Origin: Candidatus Doudnabacteria bacterium
GTDB lineage: Bacteria; Patescibacteriota; Doudnabacteria; UBA920; VMFF01
Length of the DNA stretch: 64,000 nucleotides
Assembly: GCA_963840645.1 (NCBI GenBank)
Contig: CAWIZL010000004.1
Span: 16,574-80,573 of the forward strand
Reading direction: 5' to 3'
Shown: in pieces, positions 5,134 through 54,463 of the stretch
Position numbering within the stretch: position 1 is the first letter of the stretch
How the letters are laid out: each line of letters opens with the position of its first letter
The notes under the pieces: generated by a model
Seen by the model: only the letters and a program-made list of their open reading frames with translations
Databases searched by the model: none
What the model was told of the DNA's origin: nothing
Made by a program: the position numbers and the translations under genes

Positions 5134-5296
5134 CGGTATCGGGATTCCTCCACGGGAGTACGAGAGCGGACCAAACATCCGGGCCCCCAGGAAGCGGATT
5201 TTGCTTCTTGGGATGGAAATGGCCGTGCGCTCCCCCCATTGGTATTAAAACATCTTGAAACCAGTTAGGGGAGTTCGGTAGTGGGCCAGTTTGAAA

Positions 5297-5375
5297 CTGT
5301 TTTGAAAGGGCACGAGTTCACTCGTGCCGAAACGCTGCAAAATGAACGCGGGCTTTAGCCCCTGAGGGATGGTTT
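5297..5375. repeat. interspersed hairpin repeat, family C (TTTTGAAAGGGCACGAG..CTCGTGCC ... GGGCTTTAGCCCCTGAGGGATG)
   Basis: Near-identical copies at 37447..37524, 9724..9824 and 24433..24535. Confidence 0.8.
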
Positions 5376-5469
5376 TCCCCGAAGTTAACCCACTACTCGG
5401 GCATCGCGCCGGGGCCCTCCCGTTAGCCTGCTCTGTTTTTGACGCGCGGAGGCGGAAACCAGCACAGTA

Positions 5470-5550
5470 CCGCCGGTCTCCTGACCGGCTGTAGTGCGGG
5501 TCTCCAGACCCGCACTCGCCTCAGACCCGCACTCGCCTGTCGACCCTCAG
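5470..5550. repeat. interspersed hairpin repeat, family B variant (hairpin-TGTAG-hairpin)
   Basis: gccggtc-tcct-gaccggc, then TGTAG, then gtgcgggtc-tcca-gacccgcac. Same architecture as 37368..37424 and 52767..52822, with different but complementary stems. Confidence 0.65.
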
Positions 5551-9521: not shown

Positions 9522-9639
9522 AAAGCTACCCCGTCGAGCAAGAATCGCTCGCTGGGGCTCCGGCATCGAACGAAGGACTAAGAAAGACATGGAACGAGGA
9601 GCAGGGAACTGATGTCTCAAATGCCCTGCGCCGTAGGCG

Positions 9640-9826
9640 CGTCGTTCGTTAGCCCCGCGCTTCAGCGTGGGGAAAGCGGATTGCGCAATCCCATCACGGA
9701 GTCCCGTAGGGACGGCGCTGATTCTGTTTTGAAAGGGCAGGACTTCAAAGCCTGCCCTGAGCGAAGTCGAAGGGTGCCACAAGGGAACAGAATCCTTCGG
9801 GCCTTTAGGCCCTGAGGGATGTTTGA
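9640..9826. repeat. composite cluster of hairpin repeats (family C copy fused to the family A core CCTGAGCGAAGTCGAAGG)
   Basis: agccccgcgcttcagcgtgggg, gtcccgtagggac, ttttgaaagggcagg..cctgccctgagcgaagtcgaaggg, gggcctttaggccctgagggatg. Track ORF 9612..9815 is composed entirely of this repeat material. Confidence 0.75.
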
Positions 9827-9949: not shown

Positions 9950-11590
9950 ATGACGGAAAAGACAATAAAGAAAGTCGAGCTGTTCGACACCAGCCTGCGC
10001 GACGGCATGCAGCAGCCGAACCTCGAAATCTCGGTGCCCAACGCCGTCATGCTGCTGGAGCGTATGGCGGCGTTCGGCGTGCGCTACGCCGAAATCGGTT
10101 TCGCCGGCGCCAACCAGTTTGTCGGCGACCTGACCAGCGCGCTCACTTCCGGTGCGACACCGGCGCGATGAAACTGGCCCTCTTCGGGCGCACGCGCGGC
10201 CGCGGCGCCAAGGTTGAAGATTGGCCCGATGTGCAGTTCATCCTCCGCCACAAGCGGCGCGTTCCCGTCGCGGTGGTCGTGGTCAAGTCGCGGCTGCTCG
10301 ACGTGGAGCGGTCGCTCGGAACGACCCCCGAAGAAAATCTGCGCATGACGTGGGAGACGATCGAGTGATCTGCAATCGCACGGCCTCGAAGTATTCGTCG
10401 ACCTCGAGCACGCCATGGATGCGAATTGCGGCCGCTGCGAAAACGGCAATCCATGCAACGCCGATTTTAGCCAGCGCAGCCTCGACCATTTCCGCCAGCT
10501 TACCGAGCAGTGCGTTCGCCAGAACGTGAGCCGCATCGTTGTGTGCGACACCAATGGCGGCGCGAGCCCGGAAGAAGTGGCAGCGCGTGATCGACGGGCT
10601 CATCCGCGATTTTCCCGGGCGAATTTCGGATTTCACGGCCACACCGATCGCGGCCTGGGCGTCGCCAACACGCGCGCCGCCATTCTGGCCGGCGCAGTCC
10701 AGGTGCAGGGAACGCTGATTGGCACCGGCGAGCGCTGCGGCAACGTGAATCTGACCACAGTGGTTGGCGCCATGCAGCTGCGCGGCGAAGCGGAGTTTGT
10801 TCCGCCCGGTCACTCAGCGGGCTTGACCAGCCTGGCGCATTCGGCCTACGCGGCCTTCGGCACTCGATCCGCCGCACGGCGCGCCCATCGTCGGTCCCGG
10901 CGCGTTCGGCACCTGGGCCGGCATGCACGGCTCGAGCGAGCGCAAGAATCCCGGGCGCGTATCTGTGGTGCGATCCGGCGCGCGTCGGCGCGAATCCAAC
11001 CATCGGCGTGAACGCGCAGTCGGGCAAGGCCAACATCATGCTGCTGTCCGAGTCGCTCGGCGTGCCGCTCAATGTCCGCGCAGGCGCAGGCGCTGATGGA
11101 CGCGAATCCAGGCCATGATCGAGGGCGGAGGATTTACGGCCAGCGAGGTTTCCTTCCGCCTGGCCTGCATGAGGACGCTCGGAACATTGCCGCAACTGGT
11201 TCACCGTCAGGAGCTGGCGCGTCTTCGACGAGTCCGACGAAGTCGGTGACACGTTTGTGCAGGCCTTTATGACGCTCGTGCTCGGCGACTCGAAGGTCGC
11301 CACCACGCGCGCCGAAGGCGCCGGCCCGGTGGACGCACTGACCAAGGCCATGCGCCACGAACTCGAGAAGTGGTATCCCGTCTCTTGCCGCAGATGCGTC
11401 TCGGCACTTCACCGTCGCGGCACTCGACGTCAAGGCACATGACTCGGCCGCGCATGTACGCGTGACGGTGAGCTTCAATGCCAACGGCCACGAGCCGTGG
11501 ATCACAGCGGGCGTGAGCAGCGACTTGAACCAGGCCGCGCTCATGGCCATCGTGGATGGCTTCCACTACTGGCTGCTGACAACCCGGTGA
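9950..11590 (+). pseudogene. 2-isopropylmalate/citramalate synthase family (LeuA/CimA-like), multiply frame-disrupted as sequenced
   Basis: MTEKTIKKVELFDTSLRDGMQQP.., EIGFAGAN, VVCDTNGG, FHGHTDRGLGVANTRAAILAGAVQVQGTLIGTGERCGN. C-terminal regulatory-like tail ends ..DGFHYWLLTTR*. Pieces are spread over at least 5 frames/ORFs. Confidence 0.8.
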
Positions 11591-12555
11591 ATCGAATCGA
11601 GCTCGTTTGACCGCCACGCAACCATCGTCGCGGCACTGAAGTAGCCTGAGCGGCCCGCACTTTCCGAGTCGGGGCTGGCATCCGGACCGCCGGTAATAGA
11701 TGTATTCCGAGATTAAACCCACAGACATTAACCCATCGCTAAGGCCATTCTCCCATACTTTTGACGCATTTCTCAACCGGTTCGGTAGGCCGGCCGCAAT
11801 TTAGAGCAATTTAGCTCACGGTCCGCCTTCAATACCCGCCTGAGACAATTCACGGCCACATATGCCGATCAGTCCGGGCAACGGACTGGTGCTAATCGAG
11901 GCTGCAGTTTCCGCCAGTCGACTCGAGATCACCCTGCGAGAAATCCGCGAAAGGAGGACTGAATGTCCACGGAATTGATAGAGCCTCGATATCTATACCA
12001 TCGCTATGGGCCCCGTTCACGCATGCTGAAGAAACCCGAGAGACCATACTCGCCGTCCGAAATCGAGGAGCTGGCCGCCTTCGTTTCTCCATCATTTTGA
12101 CTGCGAAGATGGGAAGCCACTGCGATGAGGACCCGAGGAGCGCGAAGGGTTGCGCGGCGAGTTGTCGCTCCTGCGCCGCCACTTCGGTGATAAAATCGAC
12201 CGAAATCGCCATGACGTTCGGTGTTGAGGAGGCCATGAAGACAAAAGACCAGGTGGAGCGAACCGTCGTGGTGCCGCGCGACTTGAAGCCGCTGAATATT
12301 CGGCGCTACGAAAGAGTGAGCTGCGAATAAGGCGACGATACCAGCTATGGCATCTGAAAGCGAATCGCCAGCGTGTTGCGCGGATCTTCAGGAAACAAAC
12401 CCAGACTCCACACGGGGTGCCCGGGTCTGCGATTTTGAGACCCGGGAACCACAAAAGTGAGGAGCAAACAGGAGATCAGATAATCCGGTCCACAAGTGGA
12501 ATGCGGCCCACCGCACCACGGTCTGGCGCATTTTTCTGTAATCGTGGCGCTGCAA

Positions 12556-13606: not shown

Positions 13607-13946
13607 AAAATTCTCCTTTGTGGTGGCTCTAGCTGCCCTTGCACTCAATCCCTGGATCAGTCGAAGGGATCCCTGCTGCGGGAACCGCAATCATCTCTAT
13701 CGTAGCAGAGATGCGCAAAGAAAACCGTGGCTGCGAACACGGGTTGAATCGTTCTGTGTCGACGAGTCTTTCGCCAACGCAGCCCATTCCAAAATGAAAT
13801 AAATGGCTGAGGTCGAAGAACAACACTGCCCAGACGTATGCAATGCGCGACAAGTGCCAAGATATCAAAGGCTGAATGCCGGAAGATCGTACGTGGGCGT
13901 TTGCTGAGCCTAAGGTTATGAGTCTTAAAGTTCCGATAAATGCGCT

Positions 13947-14041
13947 GTCATCCTGAGCGAAGTTTGCCGCGCTCTTGCGGCAAACGGAGTCGAAAGCCTG
14001 CCCTGAGCGAAGATCGTAGGTGCGATCGTAGTCGAACGGGG
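13947..14041. repeat. family A hairpin repeat, two tandem units
   Basis: gtcatcctgagcgaag-[tttgccgc..gcggcaaa]-cggagtcgaaag followed by cctgccctgagcgaag-[atcgtagg..]-tcgaacgg. Confidence 0.8.
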
Positions 14042-14100: not shown

Positions 14101-15368
14101 TCAATCACCTGCGGCGCCAAGCCGCTTTACGCGAACGTAACCTGCCCCAAAATCACCGCGTCGGCTCTGCGCCCGTCGCAGCAGGCACGTTTCCCGGCAG
14201 CCGATGCCAGTTTGCCACGCCAGCAGCGCAAACGCCGCCGCCTCTTTGGCTTCGGCGGGCAATCCGAAAGCTTCGCTCGTCGCCAGGTGCATCCCAAAGG
14301 TTCAAGCCGCGCGGCCAGCATCGCCATCAGCGTCCGATTCCGCGCGCCGCCACCGGAGACGATGAAATCCACGGCGTTGCCTCTTCATCCTCGGCATCAC
14401 AAATCGCGCGTAACTGCGCGCGATTGTCTCCGCGGTAAGCGCTGTCGCCGTCGCCAGCGCATCTTCGGGCGATTCTTGGATTTCGCACGGCACTTCTCCA
14501 AAAATTCCGCCGCGTAAGCCTCGCCCGAACTGTTCGCGGCCCGCGGTCCGCGGCGGCTTCAGTTTGAAATAGGTATGGCGCAGCGCGTCTTGCAGAACGG
14601 GCTCAATGACCGTTCCCGCGCAGCCAGCGCTCCGTTGCGATCGAAAGATTTATCGAAAAGTTTTTGCGTCAGCCAGTCAATCACCATGTTGCCCGGTCCG
14701 GTATCGAAGGCAATCACTTCGTCGGGCCGGCCCCGGCCGGAATCGCAGTCAGATTCGCGATGCCGCCAATATTTTGCAGCACGCGCCCGCGTTTGTTGAT
14801 CGGCGAACAGCACATAATCCAGAAGCGGAACCAGCGGTGCTCCCTGGCCGCCGGCCAACATATCGGCCGGCCGGAAGTTCGAAACCACCGGCACGCCCAG
14901 CGCCTCGGCAATCGCCTGCGCCTCGCCCGCTTGCCATGTGCAGGCAAACTTCCGCCCGCATAGGCTCCGCGCGCGCCTGGTGATAGAGCGTCTGTCCATG
15001 GCAGCCAACGAGATCGAGCTTCACCTTGTGCCGGTCGCGCGTAATCTTCACAGCCTCCGCATAGGCCAGGCCGAGCCGCCAGTTCAGCCGCGCCAGCTCC
15101 GCCGTCGAAGTCGAAGCCGCATTCATCGCCGCCAGCACCGCTCGCCGCAACAGCAGTCGGATAAGCAAAGTCCTCATGCGCCAGCAGCGTGAGCTTTCAA
15201 AGAGAGCTTGACCCCACCTCGCCGCGTTTGTTGCGCTAGGGTGGGCTGCACAATCCGCACCACGGCCACATCGATTCCATCGGCCGACGTCCCGCTCATC
15301 ACCCCGGCCACCGTCATGGCACGCGCCTTCATGATGTCTCCGCCGGCGCAGCAGCCTCTTGCGATCAT
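14101..15368 (-). pseudogene. anmK: anhydro-N-acetylmuramic acid kinase, multiply frame-disrupted as sequenced
   Basis: GVMSGTSADGIDVAVV, VGCHGQTLYHQ, NFRPADMLAGGQGAPLVP, NIGGIANLT, AFDTGPGNMVIDW, EAAAFALLAWQT, spread over at least 6 ORF fragments. ATG 15368 overlaps the nagZ stop (ATGA). Confidence 0.9.
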
Positions 15369-16486
15369 GAGTCCGTCTCCTTGCCGCCAACCACGTCGCC
15401 GAATCGCGCGCATCGCTCGCGCAGTCTCGAATTGCTTCGCCTCAAGCGCCGCAGGACATCTTGCGCCGTAAAGTGTCCTGCCGCTTCCGCGCCAACTCCT
15501 GCGCGCGATCAAGCAGGAACTTACTGAAACGCAGCCGAACGCTCGCCTTCGCGCAATCAGCGCCTCGTACGTCTGCAAAATCGGCTCCGGACTGTGGCAG
15601 ATTTCCAGCAGGTCGCTGCCTGCGCGCACGCGGCGATTGCAGCTTCCTCAATGGGCATAAACTTAGAATGCCGCCCATCTCCAAGATCATCAGAGAGAAT
15701 GATGCCGCGATAGCCGATGCGTTTGCGCAGCACAGTCTGATCCAGAAAGTCGACACGCTGGCCGGGTGCACTCTTGCCCGGCGTCAGCGGATACGCCGCG
15801 TGATTCATCATGATCATCGGCAACTCGTCGCGCAGCTCGCGATAAGGCTCCAGATCCTCATTCCAAATCTGCTGCCAGGTGCGCTCAATCTCCGGAGTCA
15901 CAAAATGCGAATCGCCGGTGCGCTCCGCCCAGCCCGGGAAAGTGCTTGCCGCAACCCGCCACTCCCTGCGCCGCTGAGCCCTGCAAGAAACTCGCGCGCA
16001 TACGGTCACTACGGCCGCGTTCGCTCCGGCAGCGACGCGAGCCCAGCACTTCGCGCGACTCCGGCAGCGCCAGATCGACCACCGGCGCAAGCGTTGTGTT
16101 GAACCCGAAAGCCTTCACCGACTCGCGCGCAATCAACTCCCCGTGCTCGGCGCGTTCGCAGCGCCAGGTTCGATTGCGCGAGCCTTCGCGCCGCATCGCC
16201 TGCGCCACCGCCTGCGCCGACGGCATCGGCGCCAGCGCATCGCGCAGCCGGTTCACCGTCCCGCCTTCCACATCGACACAACGCGCCGCAATGCGGCGCG
16301 CAAACGCTGGTCGCCTCAGCGAGCAGCGCGCGCGTTTGCGTCGCGTCGACAATATTGCGCTTGAAAAGGATGATGCCCGCCGGCCGCACCAGCTTGAGCC
16401 ACGCGCGCTCCAGCGCGGTGAGCTCCGTTCCCGCCCAGCCCCACCACCAGCAGACTTCCCGCAGCCTGCCGCAAACTTTCTTTCAT
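15365..16486 (-). pseudogene. nagZ: beta-N-acetylhexosaminidase (GH3, NagZ), multiply frame-disrupted as sequenced
   Basis: MKESLRQAAGSLLVVGLGG (ATG 16486), RPAGIILFKRNI, VDVEGGTVNRL, GFNTTLAPVVDL, CGKHFPGLG, MIMMNHAAYP, GIILSDDL. At least 5 frame changes. Stop overlaps the anmK start. Confidence 0.9.
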
Positions 16487-16583
16487 ATCCCTCAGTCCTT
16501 GAGCATTCCATCACCAAACCTAGTGGGTGCCCCCGGTCCCTCGCATTGGGACCGGGGATGATCCTAACAAGCGCTGGCTGCAC

Positions 16584-19359
16584 CTATCGGGGATCGATCC
16601 AGTCCCTTACTCCCATAGTCCCTAGTCCCTGTTCCTTCAATTCCTGCTGCAGTTCTTCCAGCAGATTCAGCGCCTGCAGCGGCGTCAGCGAGTTCACATC
16701 CGTCGCTTCAATGCGATCCACAATCCTCTGCGAGAGCGGAGTAAAGATCGTCATCTGCATCGGTTCGGCCGCTGTCTCCACCTGCACGCTCTGCCGCTCC
16801 TGCTTCTCGTGCTGGCGCAGCACATGCTTGGCCCGTTCGATCACCGCCGCTGGCAGTCCGGCCAGCCGCGCCACTTCGATGCCATAGCTCTTGCTCGCCG
16901 CGCCCGGCTCAATGTTATGCAGAAACACAATGCCGCCTGCCGACTTCCTTCACGCCCACGCGCAGATTCCGCACGCGCGGCAGCTTCTCCGCCAGCATCG
17001 TCAGCTCGTGATAGTGCGTGGCAAACAGCGTGCGCGCGCCCACCTCCGCATGCAGAAACTCCACCGTCGCCCACGCCAGCGAAAGCCCGTCGAAAGTCGC
17101 CGTTCCGCGGCCCATCTCATCGAGCAGAATCAGCGACCGCTGCGTCGCCGTATTCAAAATCGTCGCCGTCTCCGTCATCTCCACCATAAAGGTCGACCGG
17201 CCGCGCGCCACATTATCGCTGGCGCCGATGCGCGTATAAATGCGGTCGACAAGGCCAAAGCGCAAGCTGTCGGCTGGCACAAAACTGCCCATCTGCGCCA
17301 TCAGCACCAGCATCGCCGCCTGCCGAAGATAGGTGCTCTTGCCGCCCATGTTCGGTCCGGTAATCAGCAACAGGCTCGGCGGCGCTCTCGCACTTCGCCT
17401 TTAGAGAAGATCTGCGAGGCACAGATAAAGATCGTTCGCAATGAAACGCCCCTCGCGCGTCTCCTCCATCCACTGCTCGATCACCGGATGCCGCGCCGCA
17501 ACAGCCTCCAGCACCGGCTCATCCGCCAACTGTGGCCGCACATAGCGGCGCGCCGCCGCCAGATGCGCAAAACACGCCAGCAGATCTGCCTCGGCCACAG
17601 CCGCCGAGCTGCGCCGGATTCGTCCCGCCGCTGTCGAGCACAAACTGTCCGCAGCTCGGCAAAAATGCGCTTCTCAATCTCGATGCAGCGGTCGTGCGCA
17701 GTAAGAATCTTGCGCTCGTATTCCTTCAGCTCCGGCGTCGTAAACCGCTCGGCATTCACCAGCGTCTGTTTGCGCTCGTAGTCGGCGGGAGCCAGCGCCA
17801 GATTCGCCTTCGTGATCTCGATGTAATAGCCGAAGACCGAGTTATAGCGCACCTTCAGCGATCCGATCCCAGTGCGTTGCCGCTCGCGCTCTTCAATGGC
17901 CGCGATCGCCTGCCGGCCGGTGGTCGAAATCGAGCGCAACTCATCCAGTTCCGCGTCCACGCCCGCGGCAATCGCGCCGCCATCGACCAGCGTCAGCGGC
18001 GGCTCGGCAACCAGCGTTCGTCACAATCCGCGTCGTCACGTCGTCGAGCGTGTCGAGCCGCGCGCCAGCTGCGCGCCACAGCGGCGCCGTCATCGCTTCG
18101 AGCGCGGTCTTCAATCCCGGCAGCCGCGCCAGGCTCGCGGCCAGCGCGCGCACATCGCGCGGCCCTGCCGAGTCGAGCGAAATCCGCGCCAGCAGCCGCT
18201 CCAGATCCAGAATTCCCTGAAATGCCCGCCGCATTTCTTCGCGCTTCAGCAGATCGCCGTGCGCTTCGGCGACTGCTTCATAGCGCGCCTCAATTTCCGG
18301 CGCATCATTCAGCGGCCGCAGAATCGTCGCCCGCAGCAGCCGCTTGCCCATCGGCGTCTGGCATGCATCGAGAGTGCGAAACAGCGTGACGCGATCGTCC
18401 TGCCCGGCAAACAGCGGCTCGACCAGTTCGAGATTCCGCACCGTCACCTGGTCGAGTTCGAGCGCGGTCGAGTGCTCCTCGAAATTCAGACGAGTCGATG
18501 TGCAGCGCCTCGTTCTTCTGCGTGGTGCGCACATAGTGCAGCACGGCCCCGGCCGCAATCGCCGCCGGCATCGTGCCCATCCAGCCCGAATCCTTCGAGC
18601 GAACGCACATTCAGTTGCCGTTCGACGAGCGGGACAGCAAAGTCGCGCGTCCACACCCAGTCCTCAACGCGCGTGCGCGCCGCAATCCGCTCCAGCTGCG
18701 GCGGCAACTCCGCGCTCGTCGCCAGCAGCACCTCGCTCGGAGCCGCCAGCAGCAACTCGTCGATGGCCTGCGCCGCGCGCATCGCGCCCGCGAAATTCCG
18801 CAGTGCGAAACTCGCCGGTCGACACATCGAGCAGCGCCAGCGCGCAAACATTTCCGGGTGCCCCATCCTGGCGGCGTCTTTGTTTCCGCCGCCACGGTGG
18901 GAATCCTCGTAAAGCGCCGCAAGAAAATTGTTCTGCTCCTGCCCCAGCGCCGCATCGAGCGCCGTTCCCGGCGAAAGCACCCGCGTCACCTCGCGCCGCA
19001 CGATCTTCTTCGTGAGCTTAGGGTCTTCCATCTGATCGCAGAGGGCGATGCGGTAGCCCTTGCGCAGCAGGCGCGTCAGGTACTCTCGACCGCGTGATAG
19101 GGAACGCCGCACATGGGCATGCTGCGCTCCCGGTCGCGCGCCGTCAGCGTCAGTTGCAGCTCGCGGCTGGCCGTCGCGGCATCGTCATAGAAGAGCTCGT
19201 AAAAATCGCCCATGCGAAAAACAGCAGCGCATCGGGATTTTGCCTCTTCGCCGCCGTCCACTGGCGCATGAACGGCGTTAGTTCCGTGGAGTTGCTCTCC
19301 GCCTGCGGCTTTCCGCGGGCAGGGAAGTGAGCGCGAACTCTTCTTGAGCCCGGCGTCAT
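16584..19359 (-). pseudogene. mutS: DNA mismatch repair protein MutS, multiply frame-disrupted as sequenced
   Basis: TPFMRQW...[48 protein letters not shown], and Walker [29 protein letters not shown]. Eight fragments: 19150..19485, 19076..19261, 18486..19112, 17941..18654, 17481..17960, 17401..17643, 16915..17370, 16584..16928. Confidence 0.95.
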
Positions 19360-19738
19360 CCGCAAGCGTAGTGGTCGCGTTTTAGCCGGCAGGCGCGGGT
19401 TGCAGGCCGCTCGTGGACGGCAGCCGCGCGCCATCGGGGGGCAAGGCTGCGTCCGGAAGTAGGGCAACCGGAGGGGAGTCAGCACGGGCGGGGTTAGAGT
19501 CGTCGCGGATCACGCTGGTTCTAAGATTATCGTGGCGGCGAGCCGCGGGGGTAGCGGAAACGGAAGTGGAAGCCTGTTTAGTCCATCCTGTTTGATTTCC
19601 CGTCAAATGACCCGCCAAGAAATTTGGCGGCCATCGATGCACCCATGTACAATCGCTGCGATTCACGGGCATCCTGAATCCCTGCGCCGAATTCCGGCCA
19701 AAGCGCCGAATTCCAAAATTCCCTCGGAGGAAAATCAA

Positions 19739-20536
19739 ATGAACAGAATGAAGCAGTATCTCGTTTGCACGTTGCTTGCCGCGCGGCGCTGTGCGCTGCA
19801 CCGGCCCAGGCTCAATCCCCATTCGACGGCACATGGAAGACTGACCTGTCGCAGACCAAGTTCAGCCCCAAACCCCTGGCTTTCTATATCAGCCAGGGAT
19901 GGTATCACTGCGTCACTTGCAACCCCGCCTTCGACGTTGCGGCCGACGGGCAGGATCACGCCGTCACCGGGCAGTCCTACGACACCATCAGCGTTACCGT
20001 CGTAGACCCGCACTACCATCTCTGTCGCGACCAAGAAGGGCGGCCAAGCCGATTATGAGCAGACCCGCACCGTCTCTGCTGACGGCAAAACCCTCACTGT
20101 CAAAACCACCGGCCATCCCGCGAATGGCGGCGCGGCGACGAGCTTTGACACCACCGCCAAACGCAGCGGCACGGCGCCTGCCGGCGTGCATGCGACCTCC
20201 GGCCAATGGATCATCCAGAAGCAGAGCGGAAGCGACAATGGCCTGTTGACCACCTACAAGTTGGATGGCGACCAGTTCACGATGACCTCGCCCACCGGTG
20301 AAACCTACACCGCGAAATTTGACGGCGCCGACTACCCGGTGACGGGCTCGAATTACTACAACGCGGTCTCGCTGAAGAAGATCAACGCCAACACGATTGA
20401 GGAAACCGACAAGCGGGATGGCAAAGTCACGGATGTGTCGACAATGACCGTCTCGGCAACGGCAAGATCGATGACCGTGGTCGATAACGACAAGATCACC
20501 GGCCGCACTGCAACATACATCGCCAAAAAGCAGTAA
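19739..20536 (+). pseudogene. secreted hypothetical protein (beta-rich), frame-disrupted as sequenced
   Basis: Signal MNRMKQYLVCTLLA..AAPAQAQSPFDGTWK. Repeated 'GxxYTAKFDGxDYPVTG'-like beta modules. Pieces in ORFs 19532, 19765 and 20186 (at least 3 frame changes). Confidence 0.6.
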
Positions 20537-20802
20537 CGTTCCGAGTTAGTGGGTCGTTGAGCGTGAAACGGCTCGACACAGCGTGCCGAAGCGTCGCCAA
20601 AATTCCGTGGCACAGCCCCGGGACCGTGACCCGCGCAGGCGCCTGGAAGCAGACCCTCGGTCGATTACCGAGATGTCTGCATCCCGCGAGAGCGCGACTT
20701 GCAGCACAGATGCCATCAGTCCTGCGGGTTAATCCTTAAGCCGCGACCGGGTGATTTACATCACAGTATACTGATCGGTAACGCCTTAAGGTAAAAGCTG
20801 CC

Positions 20803-21640
20803 ATGTACCTTCTCTGGCTACGAGTTGCGGCCATTTTGTATGCGGCGGCAAGTGTCGCCATCTTTCCCGCCGTGCTCTACGAAATCGCTGCCCTGGCGCA
20901 AAACCTGCGTCCATCTGGGCGGCATGGCGTTCTTCTTCCATTTTGTCTCCGTGGTTGAAATGCTGGTGCAGGCGCACCGCTGGATGCCGGTCGGCGTTCG
21001 CGAAATCGAGTCGCTGCTGGGCTTTGCAGTGGCGGGCCTGTTTTTCCTGGTCTGGTGGCTCTATGACGCCATCTCTCTCGGAATCTTTGCCTTGCCGGCG
21101 ACATTCTTCCTCGTTTTTATTCCCGCGCTGGGCCCGGACCGCATACGTTTCCCCAGAAGGCGTCTATAATAGCTGGCTCGTCGCGCACATTATTGCCCTG
21201 CTTCTCGCTTATGCCGCCCTCTGCTTCAGCCTGCTGGCGTCCATGCTTTATCTCGTGCAGGAGCGCCGCATCAAGTCCAAATCCAAAGCCGGCAGGACGC
21301 AACGCTGGCAGCCGCTGGACTGGCTGCCGCCGCTCGACACGCTCGAGCGTCTGGCCCTGGCTACCCTCGAATTCGGATTTCCCTGCATGACAGTCGGCCT
21401 GATCATTGGGTCGGTCCTGGTGCAGGAAACGTCGCTCGGCGCTGCCTATTTTCTCGATCCCAACATCATTGCTTCGTTCGTGATGTGGATCGTTTACGTC
21501 ATCCTCCTGCTCGTTCCGCCGCAGCGCAGGGAATGCGCGGCCGCAGGGCTGCCTATGTCTCCGGCGGGGCGCTGGTCGTAATGATGGCAGTTTGGGCCGT
21601 CAACTTTTTCAGCCAGGTGCACAGGTTCGGTCCGCAATGA
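20803..21640 (+). pseudogene. cytochrome c assembly (CcsA/HemX-like) membrane protein, frame-disrupted as sequenced
   Basis: Polytopic membrane protein immediately upstream of hemA: MYLLWLRVAAILYAAASVAIF.., WLVAHIIALLLAYAALCFSLLASMLYLVQERRIK, FLDPNIIASFVMWIVY. At least 3 frame changes. Stop overlaps the hemA ATG (ATGA 21637..21640). Confidence 0.7.
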
Positions 21641-23039
21641 CGCTCGCACTCATTGGCGTGAACCACAAAACGGCGCCCATCGCGCTCAGGGAGAGGATCG
21701 CCATCGGCCGCGACGATTTGGCAGAAGCCACGCGCGCCCTGGCTGCAACGCCGGGAGTGACCGAGTGCATGATCGTCTCCACTTGCAATCGCGTGGAACT
21801 GCTGGCCGCCGTCGAGGGTTCCGTCGCGCCGCTAGCGGGTTTCCTTGCGAATCACTTCGGCATCGACGCCTCGGTACTCGCGCCGCACCTGTACGAGTAT
21901 CACGATAAAGATGCCGTCAGCCATCTCTTTCGCATGGCCGCAAGCCTTGATTCCATGGTGGTCGGCGAGCCGCAGATTCTCGGTCAGGTGAAAGAAGCCT
22001 TCGCCGTTGCGCGTGCCGCGGGAACTGTCTCCGGCCAGCTGGACCACCTGCTGCAAAGCGCGTTCGCCGCAGCGAAAAAGGCGCGCAGCGAAACCGGCAT
22101 CGGCTCGAATTCAGTTTCCATCGCATCCGTGGCTGTAGATATGGCGCGCAAAATCTTTGGCTCGCTGAAGGGCCGCACGGTGTTTCTCGTGGGCGCAGGA
22201 AAAATGAGCGAGATCGCCGCGCGGCATCTCGTGCAGCAGGGCGCGGGCGCCATCCTGGTCAGCAATCGCACCGCCGAGCGCGCGCGCCGCATGGCCGAGG
22301 AGTTTTCCAGCGAGGTGGCGCCGCAGGTGATCGAATTCGATCAGCTCTACGAAGCGGCCAGCCGCGCCGACATCGTCATCAGCTCCACTGGCGCGCCGCA
22401 TCCCATCTTCCGTCGCGAGCACGGGCAGGCTTTCCTGCACAAGCGGCGCAACCGGCCCATGTTCTTCATCGATATCGCCGTACCGCGCGACGTCGATCCG
22501 GAGATGAACAAGCTCGACGGCATCTTCGTCTACGACATCGACGATCTGCAGCCAGGTGGCAGCGGCGCACATGGAAGAACGCAGCCGCCAGGCCGTCGAT
22601 GCGGAAACGCTAATCGCCGCGGAGGTAGAGCGATTCCACCTGCGCCAGCGCACCGTCAGCGCTGCACCGGCCATTGTTGCGTTGCAAAGGAAAGCCGAAG
22701 AAATTCGTGTGGCGGAGATTCGATCGCATTCACAATCGCCTCGGCCAGCTCACGGCCGAGCAGCTCGCCGCCGTCGAAGCGCTCACGCGCGGACTGGTGA
22801 ACAAGTTTCTGCATCCGCCCATACAGGCGCTCAAGCAGGCGGCGCGCGAAGGCGACTCCGCGCGGCTCGATGCGCTCTGCGACGAGTGGGCGGTTTCGCC
22901 GGCTGCCCAGGCCGAGCCGCAACCCGCAGGCGAGCCAGCGGCGAATGCCGAACCAGAAAGCCCAAGCGCCGAGGCTCCTGAGAGCAAACGCATCGTCAAT
23001 TTGAGAGTTATCGAAGGCGGCAGTGAGGCGCGCCGATGA
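21637..23039 (+). pseudogene. hemA: glutamyl-tRNA reductase, two frame changes as sequenced
   Basis: MTLALIGVNHKTAPIALRE, VSTCNRVE, GEPQILGQVK, VGAGKMSE. Continues in ORFs 22556 and 22674 (..LTRGLVNKFLHPP..). Insertion-type shifts near 22552 and about 22705. Confidence 0.95.
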
Positions 23040-24003
23040 AGCTGCGCATCGGCAGCCGTGGATCGCAACTCGCACTGTGGCAGGCCAATCACATTGCCGG
23101 ATTGCTGCGCGTCAGGGCCACGAAGTCGAAATCGAAATCATCAAAACTACCGGCGACCGCCTGCAGGACATCACCTTCGCGCAAGTCGGCTCCAAAGGCA
23201 TGTTCACCAAGGAAATTGAAGAAGCTCTAGCCATGGCCGAAATAGATCTCGCCGTGCATTCGCTCAAAGACCTGCCCACCGAACTGCCTGAGCCATTTAC
23301 GCTCGCGGCCACGCCGGTGCGCGTCGATCCGCGCGACGTATTTGTTTCCGTCAAGCACGCCAATCTCGCCGCGCTGCCGCTAGGCGCGCAGCGTTGGCAC
23401 CAGCAGCCAGCGCCGACGCGCGCAGTTAAAGGCGCTGCGGCCCGACCTCGATCTGGTCGAGTTTAGAGGCAATGTTGACACGCGGCTGCGCAAGCTGGCC
23501 GAAGGGCAGGTAGAGGCGATTCTGTTCGCCGCCGCCGGGCTCGACCGCCTGGGCCGGACCGACTGGGTGCGCGAGCGGCTCGATCCTAAAGAATTTTGTC
23601 CTGCCGCCGGGCAGGGCGCGCTCGGCATTGAAACCCGCAAAGATGACGCAGCGACCATCGAGGCGGTCAGCTTTCTCGACCACGCCGATACGCGGTTCGC
23701 CGTCTCGGTCGAGCGCGCAGCGTTGGCTGCTCTGGGCGGCGGCTGCCAAGTGCCCATCGGGATATATTGCCGCCAAGTTCAAGTTAAAGATTGGCAGGCC
23801 GCCGGCGAAATCACGCTCACGACGAAGTCTTTGCCGTCGTTGCTCGCCCAGCCACAGGCGCGATTGTCCGCGTCTATCATCGAAGCGTGCGCGACAACAA
23901 CGATCCCACAGCACTCGGTCGCAAGGTTTCCGCGATGCTAATGGAAGCAGGCGCAGGCCCGTTGCTTGCGGCCTCCTGCGAAGCCGCAGGCGGAGCTGCC
24001 TGA
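23036..24003 (+). pseudogene. hemC: hydroxymethylbilane synthase (porphobilinogen deaminase), about 3 frame changes as sequenced
   Basis: [41 protein letters not shown], (R)[44 protein letters not shown] overlap with the hemA stop and TGATG overlap with the hemD start. Confidence 0.95.
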
Positions 24004-24908
24004 TGACGCCCGAGCCGCTTGCTGGCAGCCGCGTGCTCAAGGGAAGACGCGTCCTCGTCACGCGCGCCACGCACCAGGCAAGCAAATTGAGTGACGGCCT
24101 GCGCGCGTTGGGCATCGAGCCGGTCGAAGTCCCGGTGCTCGAGATTCAGCCCCCAACAGATTACGCGCCGCTCGACCACGCGTTGCGCTGCCTCGACTCG
24201 TATGACTGGCTGATTCTGACCAGCGCAAACACGGTGCGCGCCCTCGCGGGCCGCGCGGACTCGCTCGGTTTGCCACTTGCGCTGGGCCCGCACCTGCAGG
24301 TGGCTGCGATCGGAGAATCCACGGCCGCCGCGGCGCGCGAGACCGGCTTTACCATAGCCCTTGTCCCGCTGAATTACGTCGCCGAAAGCCTCGTCAAAGC
24401 GCTCCTCAATGGAGCCAAACGCTCAGACGCCGTGAAAGGGCACGACCGGGGAACCCACACAGTGTGTGGGTCGCGTGCCGATAAGTGTCAATCAAAAGAG
24501 GGGGCTTTAGCCCCTGAGGGAAGCCTTCAGGGCCAGAGATTTCTGCTTGCCCGCGCCGAAATCGCCCGCGACGTGATCCCCGACGCGTTGCGCGCCTTTG
24601 GAGCCACAGTCGATGTCGTCGATGCCTACAGAAACGTCATGCCCGCAGCCGCGCCGGAGCTGCTACGCGCGGCCTTAAAGAAGAGAATCGACGCCGCAAC
24701 CTTCACCAGTTCCTCAAGCGTCACGCATCTTGCCGCCGCGGCTCGATCAGCCGGAATCGCATTTCCGTTCGCTGGCGTCCGCGCCGTTTCTATCGGTCCC
24801 ATCACCAGCAAAACGCTGCGCGAACTCGGCTGGGAACCAGCGGCGGAGGCGAGCGTGTCGGATGCCCCCGGCCTGATTGCGGCGGTCGAGAAAGTCTTTC
24901 GTGCCTAG
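24003..24908 (+). CDS. hemD: uroporphyrinogen-III synthase carrying an in-frame repeat-derived insertion
   Basis: Starts MTPEPLAGSRVLKGRRVLVTRA inside track ORF 23628..24908. HemD-like two-lobe pattern (DWLILTSANTV..., FTSSSSV). Uninterrupted frame. Confidence 0.85.
   Translation: MTPEPLAGSRVLKGRRVLVTRATHQASKLSDGLRALGIEPVEVPVLEIQPPTDYAPLDHALRCLDSYDWLILTSANTVRALAGRADSLGLPLALGPHLQVAAIGESTAAAARETGFTIALVPLNYVAESLVKALLNGAKRSDAVKGHDRGTHTVCGSRADKCQSKEGALAPEGSLQGQRFLLARAEIARDVIPDALRAFGATVDVVDAYRNVMPAAAPELLRAALKKRIDAATFTSSSSVTHLAAAARSAGIAFPFAGVRAVSIGPITSKTLRELGWEPAAEASVSDAPGLIAAVEKVFRA
24433..24535. repeat. family C hairpin repeat copy located inside the hemD coding frame
   Basis: gtgaaagggcacg..cgtgccg...ggggctttagcccctgaggga matches the intergenic copies at 5297 and 37447. 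Encodes ..SDAVKGHDRGTHTVCGSRADKCQSKEGALAPEGSLQG.. in HemD. Confidence 0.75.
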
Positions 24909-25667: not shown

Positions 25668-26066
25668 TCAGGATAAAAGCCGGGCACGCCTGCCCTGCGC
25701 TTTGAGCAGTTTCACGGCTTGCTTGTCGAAGCTAACAAACTCTTCGGCGCCAAGCCAAGCGCCTTCGTATGCGATTACTCCGTCGGCAAAGTCACCGCCC
25801 TTGTCGAGCAGCTCTAATCCGGCCTCCACCGAAGCACGGTCTGTGACCACGTTCTCGCTATCGATCAGGAACCGAATTGCCTTTGCTACTTCATCCGAAT
25901 CCTTCTTATATCCCTGTCTGAGAACCCAGACGAATTCGCATAGGACGGACACCGGTATGGCGACGAGATCAGCAATCCTGAGAACCTCCGCGACCAAACG
26001 CGCCTGGCGAGGATTGTCGTGCAAGGCGTCGCGCAGAAGCACATTCGTGTCCGCAACGATCCTCAT
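25668..26066 (-). CDS. vapC: PIN-domain ribonuclease toxin VapC
   Basis: MRIVADTNVLL.. (first acidic D), later conserved E/D positions. 132 aa. 4-nt ATGA overlap with the upstream antitoxin. Confidence 0.85.
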   Translation of the reverse strand: MRIVADTNVLLRDALHDNPRQARLVAEVLRIADLVAIPVSVLCEFVWVLRQGYKKDSDEVAKAIRFLIDSENVVTDRASVEAGLELLDKGGDFADGVIAYEGAWLGAEEFVSFDKQAVKLLKAQGRRARLLS

Positions 26067-26314
26067 CGCTTGCCCGCCCAGGCATCTTCGGTGATCTTCT
26101 TGATTTGAGCGATGCTGAGCCGCGGCGTGCCCGGCTTAGCCAGGCAGCCACTGAAAGCCTCGATCGAGTGCTTCCGTGCCGCGGGCCGCACTTCAAGCCG
26201 GCCATCCGGCAACTTCTCTACTGCAACCTTCTGACCGGGCGCGACCTTGAGATGCCGCAGCAGTTCCTGCTTCAGCGTGATTTGCCCCTTTGCGGTGATC
26301 GTGAGCGTGGCCAT
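26063..26314 (-). CDS. vapB: AbrB/SpoVT (MazE-like) antitoxin VapB
   Basis: MATLTITAKGQITLKQELLRHLKVAPGQKVAVEKLPDGRLEV is a swapped-hairpin AbrB-type DNA-binding domain. AGGAG lies 6-7 nt upstream of ATG 26314. Confidence 0.8.
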   Translation of the reverse strand: MATLTITAKGQITLKQELLRHLKVAPGQKVAVEKLPDGRLEVRPAARKHSIEAFSGCLAKPGTPRLSIAQIKKITEDAWAGKR

Positions 26315-26335
26315 AAGCAACTCCTACTTAACCAT

Positions 26336-32220: not shown

Positions 32221-33070
32221 ATGAAAGATTCAGCCGTTTTATTGATCGATTGCCCCGATCGCAAGGGCCTGGTGGCGCGCGTGTCGGGCCTGCTCTATGA
32301 GCGCGGCGCCAACATTCTGCATGCCGACCAGCACATCGACCACGAGCTCGGCCTGTTCTTCATGCGCGTCGAGTTTGAACTCGACGGCTTCGATCTCGAG
32401 GGCTTTCGCGCCGTCTTTGCCCACTCGCTGCCGAGCTTAACATGACACTGGAAGCTCACTTCAAGCGCGCGCCCGCCGCGCGTTGCGCTCTTCTGCTCGC
32501 AATATCTGCACTGCATGGCCGATCTGCTGCACCGCTGGCGCGCCGGCGAACTGGTCTGCGAGATTCCCCTGATCATTTCGAATCATCGCGAAGTGGACGA
32601 GCCTGGCGGCTTTTTACGGCGTGCCGTTCGAGCATGTGCCGGTGACCGCAGAGACGCGCGCCGGAGCCGAAGCTCGGCAACTCGAACTGCTCGCGCAGAA
32701 CAAAATCGAGCTGGTCGTTCTCGCGCGCTACATGCAAATTCTTTCGCCGCAATTCGTGTCGCGCTATCCTGCGGCCATCATCAACGTGCACCACTCGTTT
32801 CTGCCGGCGTTCACCGGCGCGCGGCCCTATCACGCGGCGCACGCGCGCGGCGTCAAGCTGATCGGCGCCACCAGCCACTACGTCACCGAGGTGCTCGACG
32901 ACGGCCCCATCATCGAGCAGGACGTGGCCCGCATCTCGCACCGCGACCAGGTCGAGGACCTCGTCGCTCGCGGCCGCGACCTGGAGCGCATGGTGCTTTC
33001 GCGGGCCGTCCGCTGGCACCTGGATCGCCGAATTCTCTGCTACGGCAACAAGACAGTCGTCTTCGATTAG
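32221..33070 (+). pseudogene. purU: formyltetrahydrofolate deformylase, about 4 frame changes as sequenced
   Basis: ACT domain [38 protein letters not shown], then [82 protein letters not shown]. Confidence 0.9.
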
Positions 33071-36203: not shown

Positions 36204-37314
36204 ACAGAATGTTCGCCATTATCGAGCGCGAAATGCGCAAGTTCTTCCGCTCGCCCACGCTGATGATCATGTCGCTGATGATGCCCATCCTGCAGTTGAT
36301 CATCATCGGCAACGCATTCGGCGGCAAAATCGTCGGCACGCACGTCGCCGTCGTCGATCACGATCACGGACCGCAGGCGGTCAAAGTGCGCGAGGCCTTC
36401 GATGCCGTCGCCGCCAATATCAAGACCTTCACCACCATCGATTACCCCAATGAAGTCGCGGCGCGCGAAGACGTGCGCACCGGCAAAATCGACGCCGCGG
36501 TAATTATCCCCGAGCATTATTCGCGCCGCGTCTACGCGCAGGACGCGCCCCAGCTCGGCTTTAGTCGTCGACAACTCCGACCTGTTCACTTCGGCGACTC
36601 TCGAAGGCGAGATGCAGTCGCTGGTGGACGCCATGAATGCGCCGCAAATTCAGGATCGCCTGACGAAAACCATCGCGCTCGAAGTCGTCGAGCTTTACCC
36701 GTACGTGAATTATCTGAAGTATCTTCTGCCGATGACGATCGCGCTGGCCATGTACATCTCGGTGATGATCGGCGGCGGCATGCTCTACATCGACGACAAG
36801 GCGCGCGGCGTGCACGAGGGCTACCTGGTCACGCCGATTACGAAACTTGAGCTGGTCTTCGGGCTGAACATCGCCGGCGCAATCAAGGCCACGCTGGCCG
36901 GAATATCGATCGGCGTCATCGGGTCGCTCATCGCCGGCCTCGGCATTATCTTTCATCCCATGATCGATGCTGCAGATGTTGAGCCTCATCATCGCCGGCT
37001 CCATCGCCTTCAACGGCATGATGTTTCTGCTCATGGTGCGCGTCGACGATCCGCTCGTGCCGCGCGCCATGTTCGGCGTGCTCAATGTGCTCCTGTTATA
37101 TCCCTCGGGCGCAATGTATCCCACAGCGTCGTTCCCCAGGTGGATGCAGGCGATGTCCGTGATCGATCCCTTCACCTACGCGATTCACGGCTTCAAGGCC
37201 GTCCTACTCAAAAACGGCGGCTGGATCGCCATCAGAGGCGACCTCGCGTTCCTCACCATCTTCGGAATCGCCACGCTGCTGATTGCGACGCCGCTGTTCA
37301 AGCGCACTTTGTAG
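36200..37314 (+). pseudogene. ABC-2 type transporter permease, two frame changes as sequenced
   Basis: MNRMFAIIEREMRKFFRSPTLMIMSLMMPILQLII.. and C-terminal ..AFNGMMFLLMV..LLLYPSGAMYP..FPRWMQAMSVIDPFTY. ATGA overlap with the ATPase stop. Stop codon TAG 37312..37314 lies inside a family B repeat. Confidence 0.85.
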
Positions 37315-37524
37315 CGCCGGTCTCCCGGCCGCGACCAAGTGCCGCCAACGCTGAGTCGAGGCCGCAGCTTTTGTAGCGCCGGCCTCCCGGCCGGCTATAC
37401 TGAGGCCTCCTGGCCCTCAGAGAACTTGCCATGCCGCGAAACTCCGGTTTTGAAAGGGCACGACTTCACTCGTGCCGTAAACGCCGCAGATAGAGCAAGG
37501 GCTTTAGCCGCTGAGGGATGCTTC
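37308..37524. repeat. cluster of family B (x2) and family C hairpin repeats
   Basis: tttgtagcgccggtctcccggcc (37308..37336); ttttgtagcgccggcctcccggccggc..ctgaggcctcctggccctcagag (37368..37424); ttttgaaagggcacgac..ctcgtgcc..gggctttagccgctgagggatg (37447..37524). Confidence 0.85.
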
Positions 37525-37555
37525 TCTGACCTGTGTGCCCTCCTCACACGCTTTT

Positions 37556-40242: not shown

Positions 40243-40305
40243 TTGTCATCCTGAGCAGAGTCCCGGCGTGCCGGGAAGGAGCCGAAGGATCAGCGGTTGC
40301 TTTTC
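40243..40305. repeat. family A hairpin repeat
   Basis: ttgtcatcctgagcagag-[tcccggc gt gccggga]-aggagccgaaggatcagcggttgcttttc. Confidence 0.8.
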
Positions 40306-41527: not shown

Positions 41528-41596
41528 TTGTCATCCTGAGCGGAGTTTGCCGCGCAGTTTGCGGCAAACGGAGTCGAAGGACCTGCGGCTGCTTTA
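41528..41596. repeat. family A hairpin repeat
   Basis: ttgtcatcctgagcggag-[tttgccgc gcagttt gcggcaaa]-cggagtcgaaggacctgcggctgcttt. Same orientation as the copy at 40243. Confidence 0.8.
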
Positions 41597-52720: not shown

Positions 52721-52766
52721 TTTTTGAAGAAACCTACTTCAGCGCAAGTTCCGCTGCTGGCCCCGC

Positions 52767-52822
52767 ATTTGTAGCGCCGGCCTCCCGGCCGGCTGTACTG
52801 AGGACCTCCCGGCCCTCAGAGC
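52767..52822. repeat. family B hairpin repeat
   Basis: atttgtagcgccggcctcccggccggctgtactgaggacctcccggccctcagagcc, near-identical to 37368..37424. Confidence 0.85.
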
Positions 52823-54234: not shown

Positions 54235-54242
54235 TCGGTGGA

Positions 54243-54310
54243 GGGAGGAGGGGCCTTCAGGCCCCTGAAGGATGGAGTCGGTGGTCCTGGCCTTCAGGCT
54301 CGGGCCTTCT
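54243..54310. repeat. hairpin repeat related to the family C tail (GGGGCCTTCAGGCCCCTGAAGGATGG ... GGCCTTCAGGCTCGGGCC)
   Basis: Directly after the MFS stop. Confidence 0.6.
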
Positions 54311-54393: not shown

Positions 54394-54463
54394 TTGTCAT
54401 CCTGAGCGAGGTTGGGAGCGTCCTTTGCTCCCAACGGAGTCGAAGGATCTGCGGTTGCTTTTC
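54394..54463. repeat. family A hairpin repeat
   Basis: ttgtcatcctgagcgagg-[ttgggagc gtccttt gctcccaa]-cggagtcgaaggatctgcggttgcttttcg. Confidence 0.8.

Follow-up and report, generated by a model that had tools for sequence, protein, structure and literature searches.

The gene hemD, which encodes uroporphyrinogen-III synthase (U3S), carries an extra in-frame segment in a 64,000-nucleotide stretch of contig CAWIZL010000004.1 (this whole stretch is called the window below). We find that the segment is very probably a tolerated, selfish copy of a non-autonomous, dispersed two-hairpin repeat, located at a permissive and repeatedly colonised loop of the enzyme. The repeat is abundant in Terracidiphilus-like Acidobacteriaceae. 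A preliminary description of the window had proposed that an intergenic repeat, resembling a repetitive extragenic palindromic (REP) sequence or a miniature inverted-repeat transposable element (MITE), lies in frame inside hemD, and both formal alignment and a profile search bore this out. The element-derived stretch of hemD aligned with the three intergenic copies present elsewhere in the window (Table 1), so that the nucleotide similarity to them survives formal comparison, and a profile built from the other copies, run over 1.6 Mb of related loci, recovered the hemD copy (E=2e-12). Across the same loci, the family profile gave 62 matches, with E-values from 1e-12 to 1e-23. Within the window, the 3′ motif GGSCTTTAGSCSCTGAGGGA is present as an exact 20-mer in four copies, where 0.03 are expected; none of 100 shuffles reached four.

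The element has a core of ~85-105 nt and consists of a head, a first hairpin (GGGCACGAC-TTCA-GTCGTGCC in its simple form), a variable spacer of ~21 nt, a second hairpin (GGGGC-TTTA-GCCCC) and the tail TGAGGGA. Consensus heads derived from 36 copies read TTTGAAAGGGCAC or GTGTCAGGGCAC, and bear neither a GTAG nor a CGTC tag. Base pairing is maintained across these copies: 95.7% of the cells were paired and 6 of the 13 pairs had changed on both sides, a level attained in none of 500 shuffles, while slid controls were only 28-42% paired. For hairpin 1 in its simple form, 99.3% of the cells were paired, with changes on both sides at three of the eight pairs. One forward frame of the element is free of stop codons and reads x-(K/S)-G-H-D-F-S-R-A, followed by seven variable residues and G-A-L-A-P-E-G, a hydrophilic peptide. 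The remaining two forward frames, as read from the sequence, meet TAG or TGA in hairpin 2 or the tail.

The hemD copy belongs to a subfamily with an extended hairpin 1, whose loop holds a nested hairpin. This nested hairpin had been taken for an extra feature of the hemD copy; it is indeed present, but it did not arise as a secondary event in hemD. The pattern of the nested subfamily (GGCACGACCGGGGNACCCAC) had at least 120 matches in metagenomes, with only one of the first 82 falling in hemD. A hemD-specific origin had looked possible at one point, the three copies from the first loci all being in hemD, but the metagenome scan overturned it. Other copies carry compensatory variants of the nested hairpin, for example CCCACCC/GGGTGGG.

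The host gene is intact in the window. HemD matched the Pfam family HEM4 (PF02602) at 190.9 bits (cut-off 27.5, E=2.3e-56), the match being split into two stretches by the insert, and protein alignment showed that the invariant residues of the family are kept. The gene order hemA-hemC-hemD-nth is conserved in orthologous loci. Indirectly, the open frame, the kept residues and the conserved hemA-hemC-hemD context predict that HemD remains active with the insert. The reading frame continues unbroken through the element and, compared with the insert-less hemD of locus L001, gains 37-38 codons, in line with the roughly 38 residues estimated earlier; the edges of the insert carry an uncertainty of 1-2 codons.

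An AlphaFold2 (AF2) model of the window HemD, built with the orthologue alignment, had a mean predicted local distance difference test (pLDDT) score of 85, with most of the core above 90 and residues 139-166 below 50; residues 139-178 had no secondary structure. The model matched the solved U3S structures 3re1, 1jr2, 1wd7 and 4es6 in Foldseek (E 5e-13 to 1e-11) and shows the two-lobe alpha/beta fold of U3S, joined by two long strands. On this confident fold, AF2 places the insert as a disordered surface loop between helix 126-138 and strand 179-185, in the lobe of residues ~50-201. The inter-lobe hinge is taken to be formed by the long strands 39-49 and 202-212 of the model, away from the insert. 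Thus the surface loop suggested in the preliminary description holds, but its placement between the two HemD lobes does not, as the loop lies within one of them.

Table 1. Features of the hemD insert and of related elements in the window.
Feature	Position	Strand	Sequence or remarks
hemD (uroporphyrinogen-III synthase)	24003..24908	+	Intact open reading frame (ORF) of 301 aa; host gene of the insert
In-frame insert	24417..24530	+	Codons K139-Q176 (37-38 codons); delimited codon by codon against insert-less L001 and L009
Translation of the insert		+	..SDAVKGHDRGTHTVCGSRADKCQSKEGALAPEGSLQ..; read from the hemD frame
Insert junction peptides			..NGAKRSDAVK / GHDR.. and ..GALAPEGSLQGQR
Element-derived stretch	~24433..24521		Aligns with the three intergenic copies below
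5′ head, ..GAYGYYTTGAAA type	24426..24437	+	Reads D-A-V-K; precedes hairpin 1 in intergenic copies too
Hairpin 1, extended subfamily variant	24438..24479	+	Outer arms GGGCACGAC / GTCGCGTGCC; from fold
Nested hairpin	24454..24470	+	CCCACAC-AGT-GTGTGGG, within the hairpin-1 loop; subfamily marker; encodes T-H-T-V-C-G
Variable spacer between hairpins	24480..24500	+	Reads D-K-C-Q-S-K-E
Hairpin 2 and tail TGAGGGA	24501..24521	+	Reads G-A-L-A-P-E-G
Intergenic copy, simple form	5299..5377	+	Its hairpin-2 TAG falls in the KGH.. frame
Intergenic copy, interrupted hairpin 1	9724..9824	+	Interrupted by another small repeat (..CCTGAGCGAAGTCGAAGG..)
Intergenic copy, simple form	37447..37528	+	Top match to the family profile, E=1e-22
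RAYT-flanking inverted hairpins, solo copy	54240..54269		GGAGGGAGCAGGGGCCTTCAGGCCCCTGAA...GGCTTTAGCC

The loop is a site of extensive variation among HemD relatives. Homologues of the window HemD number in the thousands; the nearest 120 clusters span 251-380 aa, and their length variation maps to this single loop. An insert of at least 28 residues occupied it in 62 of the 120, while 57 had a short loop, typically reading ..CLAGQxAGKK.. with the conserved form AGQxAGK. The HemD inserts are translated element, (L/V)(K/S)GHDFSRA, seven variable residues and GALAPEGSLRG, and each insert-bearing HemD holds one to five hairpin-1 motifs, so that copy number overall runs from zero to five. Every insert in the examined orthologues has an open frame. 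The DNA of nine orthologous loci confirmed the hemD inserts as the element at the nucleotide level, and two or three consecutive copies were found in hemD of L008, L046 and L076. The earlier statement that the element otherwise occurs between genes holds for the other three window copies, which all lie between ORFs, but the hemD copy is not a one-off: such an insert is carried by roughly half of the close HemD clusters and by many other genes.

All insert-bearing orthologues found to date come from Terracidiphilus/Acidobacteriaceae assemblies, and among them no homologous insert was seen in a genome free of the repeat. When GTDB species-representative genomes were scanned, 13 of the 80 loci that matched best had an element-derived hemD insert; all 80 were from Terracidiphilus or Acidobacteriaceae metagenome-assembled genomes (MAGs). 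In 40 of 89 sources, genomes lacking a hemD insert included, family copies were found no more than 10 kb from hemD; L001, L009 and L017, for instance, have no insert in hemD, yet carry family copies within a few kilobases of it. At a few hemD loci the loop is of intermediate length and resembles a deletion remnant.

Other repeats and rearrangements were also seen in hemD. In hemD of L006 (10001-11071), the full element is preceded by a 54-nt unit (HEVSGHETEAPGATLSRK) repeated four times in tandem; since the close relatives L030 and L022 carry one copy, this amplification occurred in place. A separate, GTAG-tagged REP family (..GTAGCGCCGGCCTCCCGGCCGGCT..) is found in the window at 5461-5499, 37308-37331, 37367-37405 and 52765-52803, clustering beside the family copies at 5299 and 37447, and it also occurs in frame in the hemD loop of L008 (~10440-10500), where it reads ..DVTPASWPAVVRAS... 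HemD of P0004 and P0007 (L010, 10193-10306) contains a second in-frame insert in a different loop, after ..LRxL, which reads ..TDPCPILSASSAERTGNQ.. and has its own hairpin, CCTTTCGGC...GCCGAAAGG. This second insert (P0004, L010) showed no repeat behaviour, with only 19-nt matches elsewhere in the DNA compared.

The distribution of the insert could also reflect a single ancient insertion that was passed down vertically and became, by exaptation, a functional loop of HemD under selection on its peptide. Its presence at one loop in many lineages, the shared GHDFSRA and GALAPEGSLRG and the frame that is always open would fit such a history, which we nevertheless consider unlikely. The junction residues shared by the inserts (HEVSG.., SDALKG.., ..PEGS) belong to the element itself, as its head and tail. 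As intergenic copies have them too, they are uninformative on the common descent of the hemD inserts, and we rejected the shared HEVSG../SDALKG.. as a sign of a single insertion because the heads of intergenic copies are identical. Two head types occur in hemD loops, both known from intergenic copies, and the hemD loops of different lineages carry three compensatory stem variants (GAC/GTC, GGC/GCC and GAG/CTC). Among the at least 120 nested copies, those closest to the window insert (76-77% identity) lie outside hemD; by similarity to it, the nested inserts of other hemD genes come 50th and 79th of 120.

We mapped the presence of the insert on a neighbour-joining (NJ) tree with 100 bootstraps, made from a query-anchored concatenate of MutS, CcsA, HemA, HemC, the HemD core and Nth (2472 columns, 81 taxa), and counted state changes by Fitch parsimony. 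At least 12 changes were needed to account for 20 insert-bearing and 55 short-loop taxa, which argues against one insertion passed on vertically. L028, with an insert, and L083, without one, are sisters (bootstrap 99), and insert-less taxa surround L005/L012. The reading we favour on these comparisons is that a permissive HemD loop would have been colonised repeatedly by different subfamilies, with turnover.

Selection on the peptide finds as little support in the pattern of constraint. Pairwise identity in 15 insert-bearing hemD genes was 0.88 at third positions of hairpin 1 and 0.96 at those of hairpin 2, against 0.55 at third positions of the flanking conserved hemD codons, whose synonymous sites are near saturation. 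The spacer, at 0.37-0.44 over all codon positions, appeared unconstrained. Because the arms are conserved at every codon position, next to near-saturated synonymous sites and a free spacer, the constraint lies on the nucleic acid and not on the peptide. Indeed, the residues that are conserved are those encoded by the hairpin arms, and the stem changes are compensatory in DNA and non-synonymous in protein (D to G, or D/S to E/T). Judged from these alignments, the conserved entity in the hemD insert is the hairpin rather than the peptide. Of the two possibilities raised in the preliminary description, exapted or tolerated, the evidence supports tolerated and not exapted: the insert is disordered in the model (pLDDT <50), varies from zero to five copies and conserves its hairpins.

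A much less probable explanation is that the mature protein lacks the element, which would be excised in the manner of an intron or intein, and that its open frame is incidental. The segment is strongly structured, as such a reading would have it, but known inteins and group I or II introns are far larger than its ~110 nt, or 37 aa. A scan of the hemD copy against Rfam 15 gave no match even at E up to 10, and thus no intron or ribozyme family, and the intergenic copies gave chance-level matches only, far below gathering scores. A permuted hammerhead, considered for the layout GAAA...CTGAGGGA, was dropped, as its core misfits CUGANGA and no ribozyme model matched. Furthermore, an open frame would be needless in a spliced segment, yet the inserts of the examined HemD orthologues are all open, and 18 of the 23 forward copies whose longest spanning ORF has at least 250 codons use the stop-free frame.

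Slightly more improbable still is that the insert arose as an artefact, when an error-prone long-read MAG was sequenced or assembled, for instance if a copy of the repeat was collapsed into hemD or misjoined there. Neighbouring genes are full of frameshifts relative to their orthologues (window 14165-23982 and 32221-33067): at least six in mutS, three to four each in nagZ and ccsA, three in hemC, two in hemA and one in purU, with anmK broken. These broken genes around hemD look like error-prone long-read assembly rather than pseudogenes. In the window, hemD, nth and ino1 are intact. Independent JGI, ENA and NCBI assemblies, from many samples and species, show such an insert at the same codon with the frame intact; the existence of the insert is therefore independent of the window assembly. 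Finally, that the segment is a native, lineage-specific HemD loop, with intergenic copies that are due to chance or derived from hemD, has nothing to recommend it beyond the location inside a gene, and is refuted by the profile E-values given above, by hundreds of copies in unrelated contexts and by the insert-less hemD of close relatives, which keeps the conserved short loop.

In-frame copies of the element were found in many further genes. With a profile of the peptide encoded by the insert, we matched 1318 representative proteins, mostly short ORFs called over intergenic arrays; the genuine hosts detected in this way included ScpA, a FolC-like Mur ligase (at two sites), LipB, a MiaB-like protein and HemD. 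The nested subfamily was in frame in genes for a DinG-like helicase, RecN (on two contigs), UvrC, LpxK, ThyX, MiaB/RimO, a GlcF-like protein, ScpA and SpeE, and of the 82 nested copies, roughly one in four to one in three were located in long ORFs. In several host proteins, Pfam domains flank the insert on both sides or span it.

A second hot spot is the loop of mutS, a gene ~5 kb upstream of hemD (~16626-19269 of the window, minus strand). The MutS loop between NNFLAAL and ALLDVSTGE ranges from 29 to 81 residues and accommodates at least three repeat families in frame (L001-L085), which read 'HPSGKNKDAARVGHP', 'PSTRPAxRDSLRMT' and, for the two-hairpin family in reverse orientation, 'PSGAKAP..ARLKSxP'. 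The reversed two-hairpin family is in frame at one mutS loop in L009 (3930-4030), L017 (3956-4037) and L020. L023 has a shorter form at that loop, L084 a further in-frame mutS copy, and L022 and L006 are further examples of a repeat-bearing mutS loop.

Several further observations concern the element and its surroundings. The copy at 2560-2654 of L001 is the same interrupted-hairpin-1 variant as the window copy at 9724, and because these two copies share the interruption, the hairpin-1 loop seems to be a target for nested insertions. The piece that interrupts hairpin 1 in the 9724 copy is related to another window repeat, TGTCATCCTGAGCG...GGAGTCGAAGGATC, found at 13946-14016, 40278-40305, 41528-41595 and 54394-54461, and also nested at ~9745-9775. 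An Acido-Lenti-1 RNA (RF01687; 40.4 bits, gathering score 37) lies at 9627-9672 on the minus strand, ~50 nt upstream of the 9724 copy. Some family copies lie within a longer imperfect palindrome ending GTAGTGGG...CCCACTAC (window 5250-5420; L071 4797-4945). The L071 copy is absent from the orthologous site of L065, giving a filled/empty pair with a length difference of ~130 nt.

The two-hairpin family is undescribed: in the literature searched, 'GHDFSRA' appeared in no paper, and no paper described such a family in Acidobacteria. By analogy, it behaves like two known systems and is thus a known kind of element. Rickettsia palindromic elements (RPEs; Ogata et al. 2000, summarised in PMC10969869 and PMC3733652) are regarded as selfish DNA tolerated by the host. 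Like RPEs, the elements described here are short, dispersed palindromic repeats, a large share of which lie in frame within unrelated housekeeping genes, and they supply a conserved peptide from one open frame at positions compatible with the protein fold (here tested for HemD only). The features expected of an RPE-like class were thus all seen, namely dispersed copies, maintained pairing, in-frame occurrence in unrelated genes and, in HemD, a fold-compatible surface position. The comparison is one of functional analogy and not of membership: the layout and the host phylum differ, and there is no apparent sequence relationship to RPEs. The two also differ in their hosts, RPEs being found in an obligate intracellular alpha-proteobacterium and the present element in free-living peat-soil Acidobacteriaceae (as placed by relatives). 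Unlike RPEs, it has two separate hairpins, a variable spacer and several subfamilies, and the loop it occupies is filled recurrently, with zero to five copies and other repeat families mixed in.

The second system is that of intragenic REPs with GTAG or CGTC tags, for which Di Nocera et al. (2013, PMC3733652) noted an enrichment in genes of replication and repair. These are likewise small hairpin repeats, mostly extragenic, of which an intragenic subset encodes 20-80 extra residues, and in both cases singles, dimers and clusters are all found. The present family shares the enrichment in such genes, its hosts including mutS, uvrC, recN and the DinG-like helicase. Instead of a GTAG or CGTC tag, however, the present family has heads reading ..TTTGAAAGGGCACG or ..GAAGTGTCAGGGCACG. 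MITEs that make in-frame fusions (ERIC, Correia, QMITE1 and Anabaena MITEs; PMC10969869) are similarly non-autonomous and readable as coding sequence, but for the present element no terminal inverted repeat (TIR), target-site duplication (TSD) or parent insertion sequence was identified.

A lead on mobilisation came from REP-associated tyrosine transposases (RAYTs). In L028, a gene for a RAYT-type Y1 transposase (PF01797) is located 1.1 kb away from hemD (12086-12532, minus strand); it was the one gene found by a local tblastn with a RAYT probe, and was confirmed by Pfam annotation of its homologues. The homologues P0276 and P0278 also adjoin nth and hemD, and L210-L214 have a gene at 1501-1998. 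RAYT-like PF01797 genes are numerous in Terracidiphilus genomes, with 1799 clusters at E<=1e-20. In L028, L210, L213 and L216, the RAYT genes are flanked by the inverted hairpins GGGGCC-TTCA-GGCCCC and GGC-TTTA-GCC, which resemble hairpin 2 only, and in L216 the head and hairpin 1 of the family are fused to the RAYT flank in one composite copy. There was no RAYT gene within the window, and none of the RAYT genes examined was flanked by complete family copies. A toxin-antitoxin pair (PIN-domain and MazE-like) is encoded at 25668-26320 of the window (minus strand), just past nth, and also in L004 and L005; its position is the site of the RAYT gene in other lineages.

The hairpin-flanked RAYT genes of Terracidiphilus resemble REPtrons/TIRtrons, in which RAYT/TIRYT Y1 HUH transposases have flanking hairpins. 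We tentatively suggest, as a possibility that is less likely than not, that Terracidiphilus-type Acidobacteriaceae may harbour an active REPtron-like system. In such a system RAYTs would mobilise two-hairpin elements that would have evolved a stop-free frame encoding a disordered peptide, the elements would colonise surface loops of essential genes (hemD, mutS, uvrC, recN and lpxK among others), exit them cleanly and return, and the hairpins would be under selection at the nucleotide level even within coding sequence. If this were true, the REPtron-like system would give rise to loops of extreme variability in the housekeeping enzymes of an entire soil lineage.

For the tolerated, repeatedly colonised loop, we propose the following course of events. 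A copy of the element would have landed in hemD after codon 138. Copies that fall in a surface loop in the stop-free frame would leave the protein intact, and the extra 37-38 residues of the HemD loop would be disordered and simply tolerated. Once colonised, the loop would have changed further as copies were amplified in tandem, other repeats became nested in it and sequence was deleted, and purifying selection would remove insertions elsewhere in hemD. The element may be mobilised by RAYT-type (Y1/HUH) transposases, of which these genomes have many, but this is a lead only.

Several points weigh against this explanation. Deep nodes of the NJ tree are weak (bootstrap 17-58), so the count of 12 changes is approximate and may be inflated; the alternatives are that one old insertion, or a few, were lost many times over, or that the insert spread between lineages through recombination. 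No clear TIR or TSD could be defined, either from the filled and empty sites of L071 and L065 or from the hemD junctions. The strong conservation of the arms within genes could also mean that the hairpin has a function there. The translation of the hemD insert is predicted from the open frame, and, given the error-prone assembly, single bases of the window hemD copy may be uncertain. The RAYT link is suggestive, drawn as it is from the resemblance of the hairpins and a single composite copy.

In-frame selfish DNA in genes is best known from Rickettsia, with its reduced, intracellular genomes; here it is found at scale in free-living peat-soil Acidobacteriaceae. What stands out is the recurrent occupation of the same loops, with zero to five copies, and the conservation of the hairpins and not of the peptide in essential genes. 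Protein families in metagenome catalogues become inflated and split through such inserts, and the repeats yield hundreds of spurious small ORFs, for example those carrying 'GHDFSRA...ALAPEG'. The inserts also flag insertion-tolerant positions of enzymes, and the family offers a natural system for studying how hairpin repeats move and why they so frequently hit repair genes.

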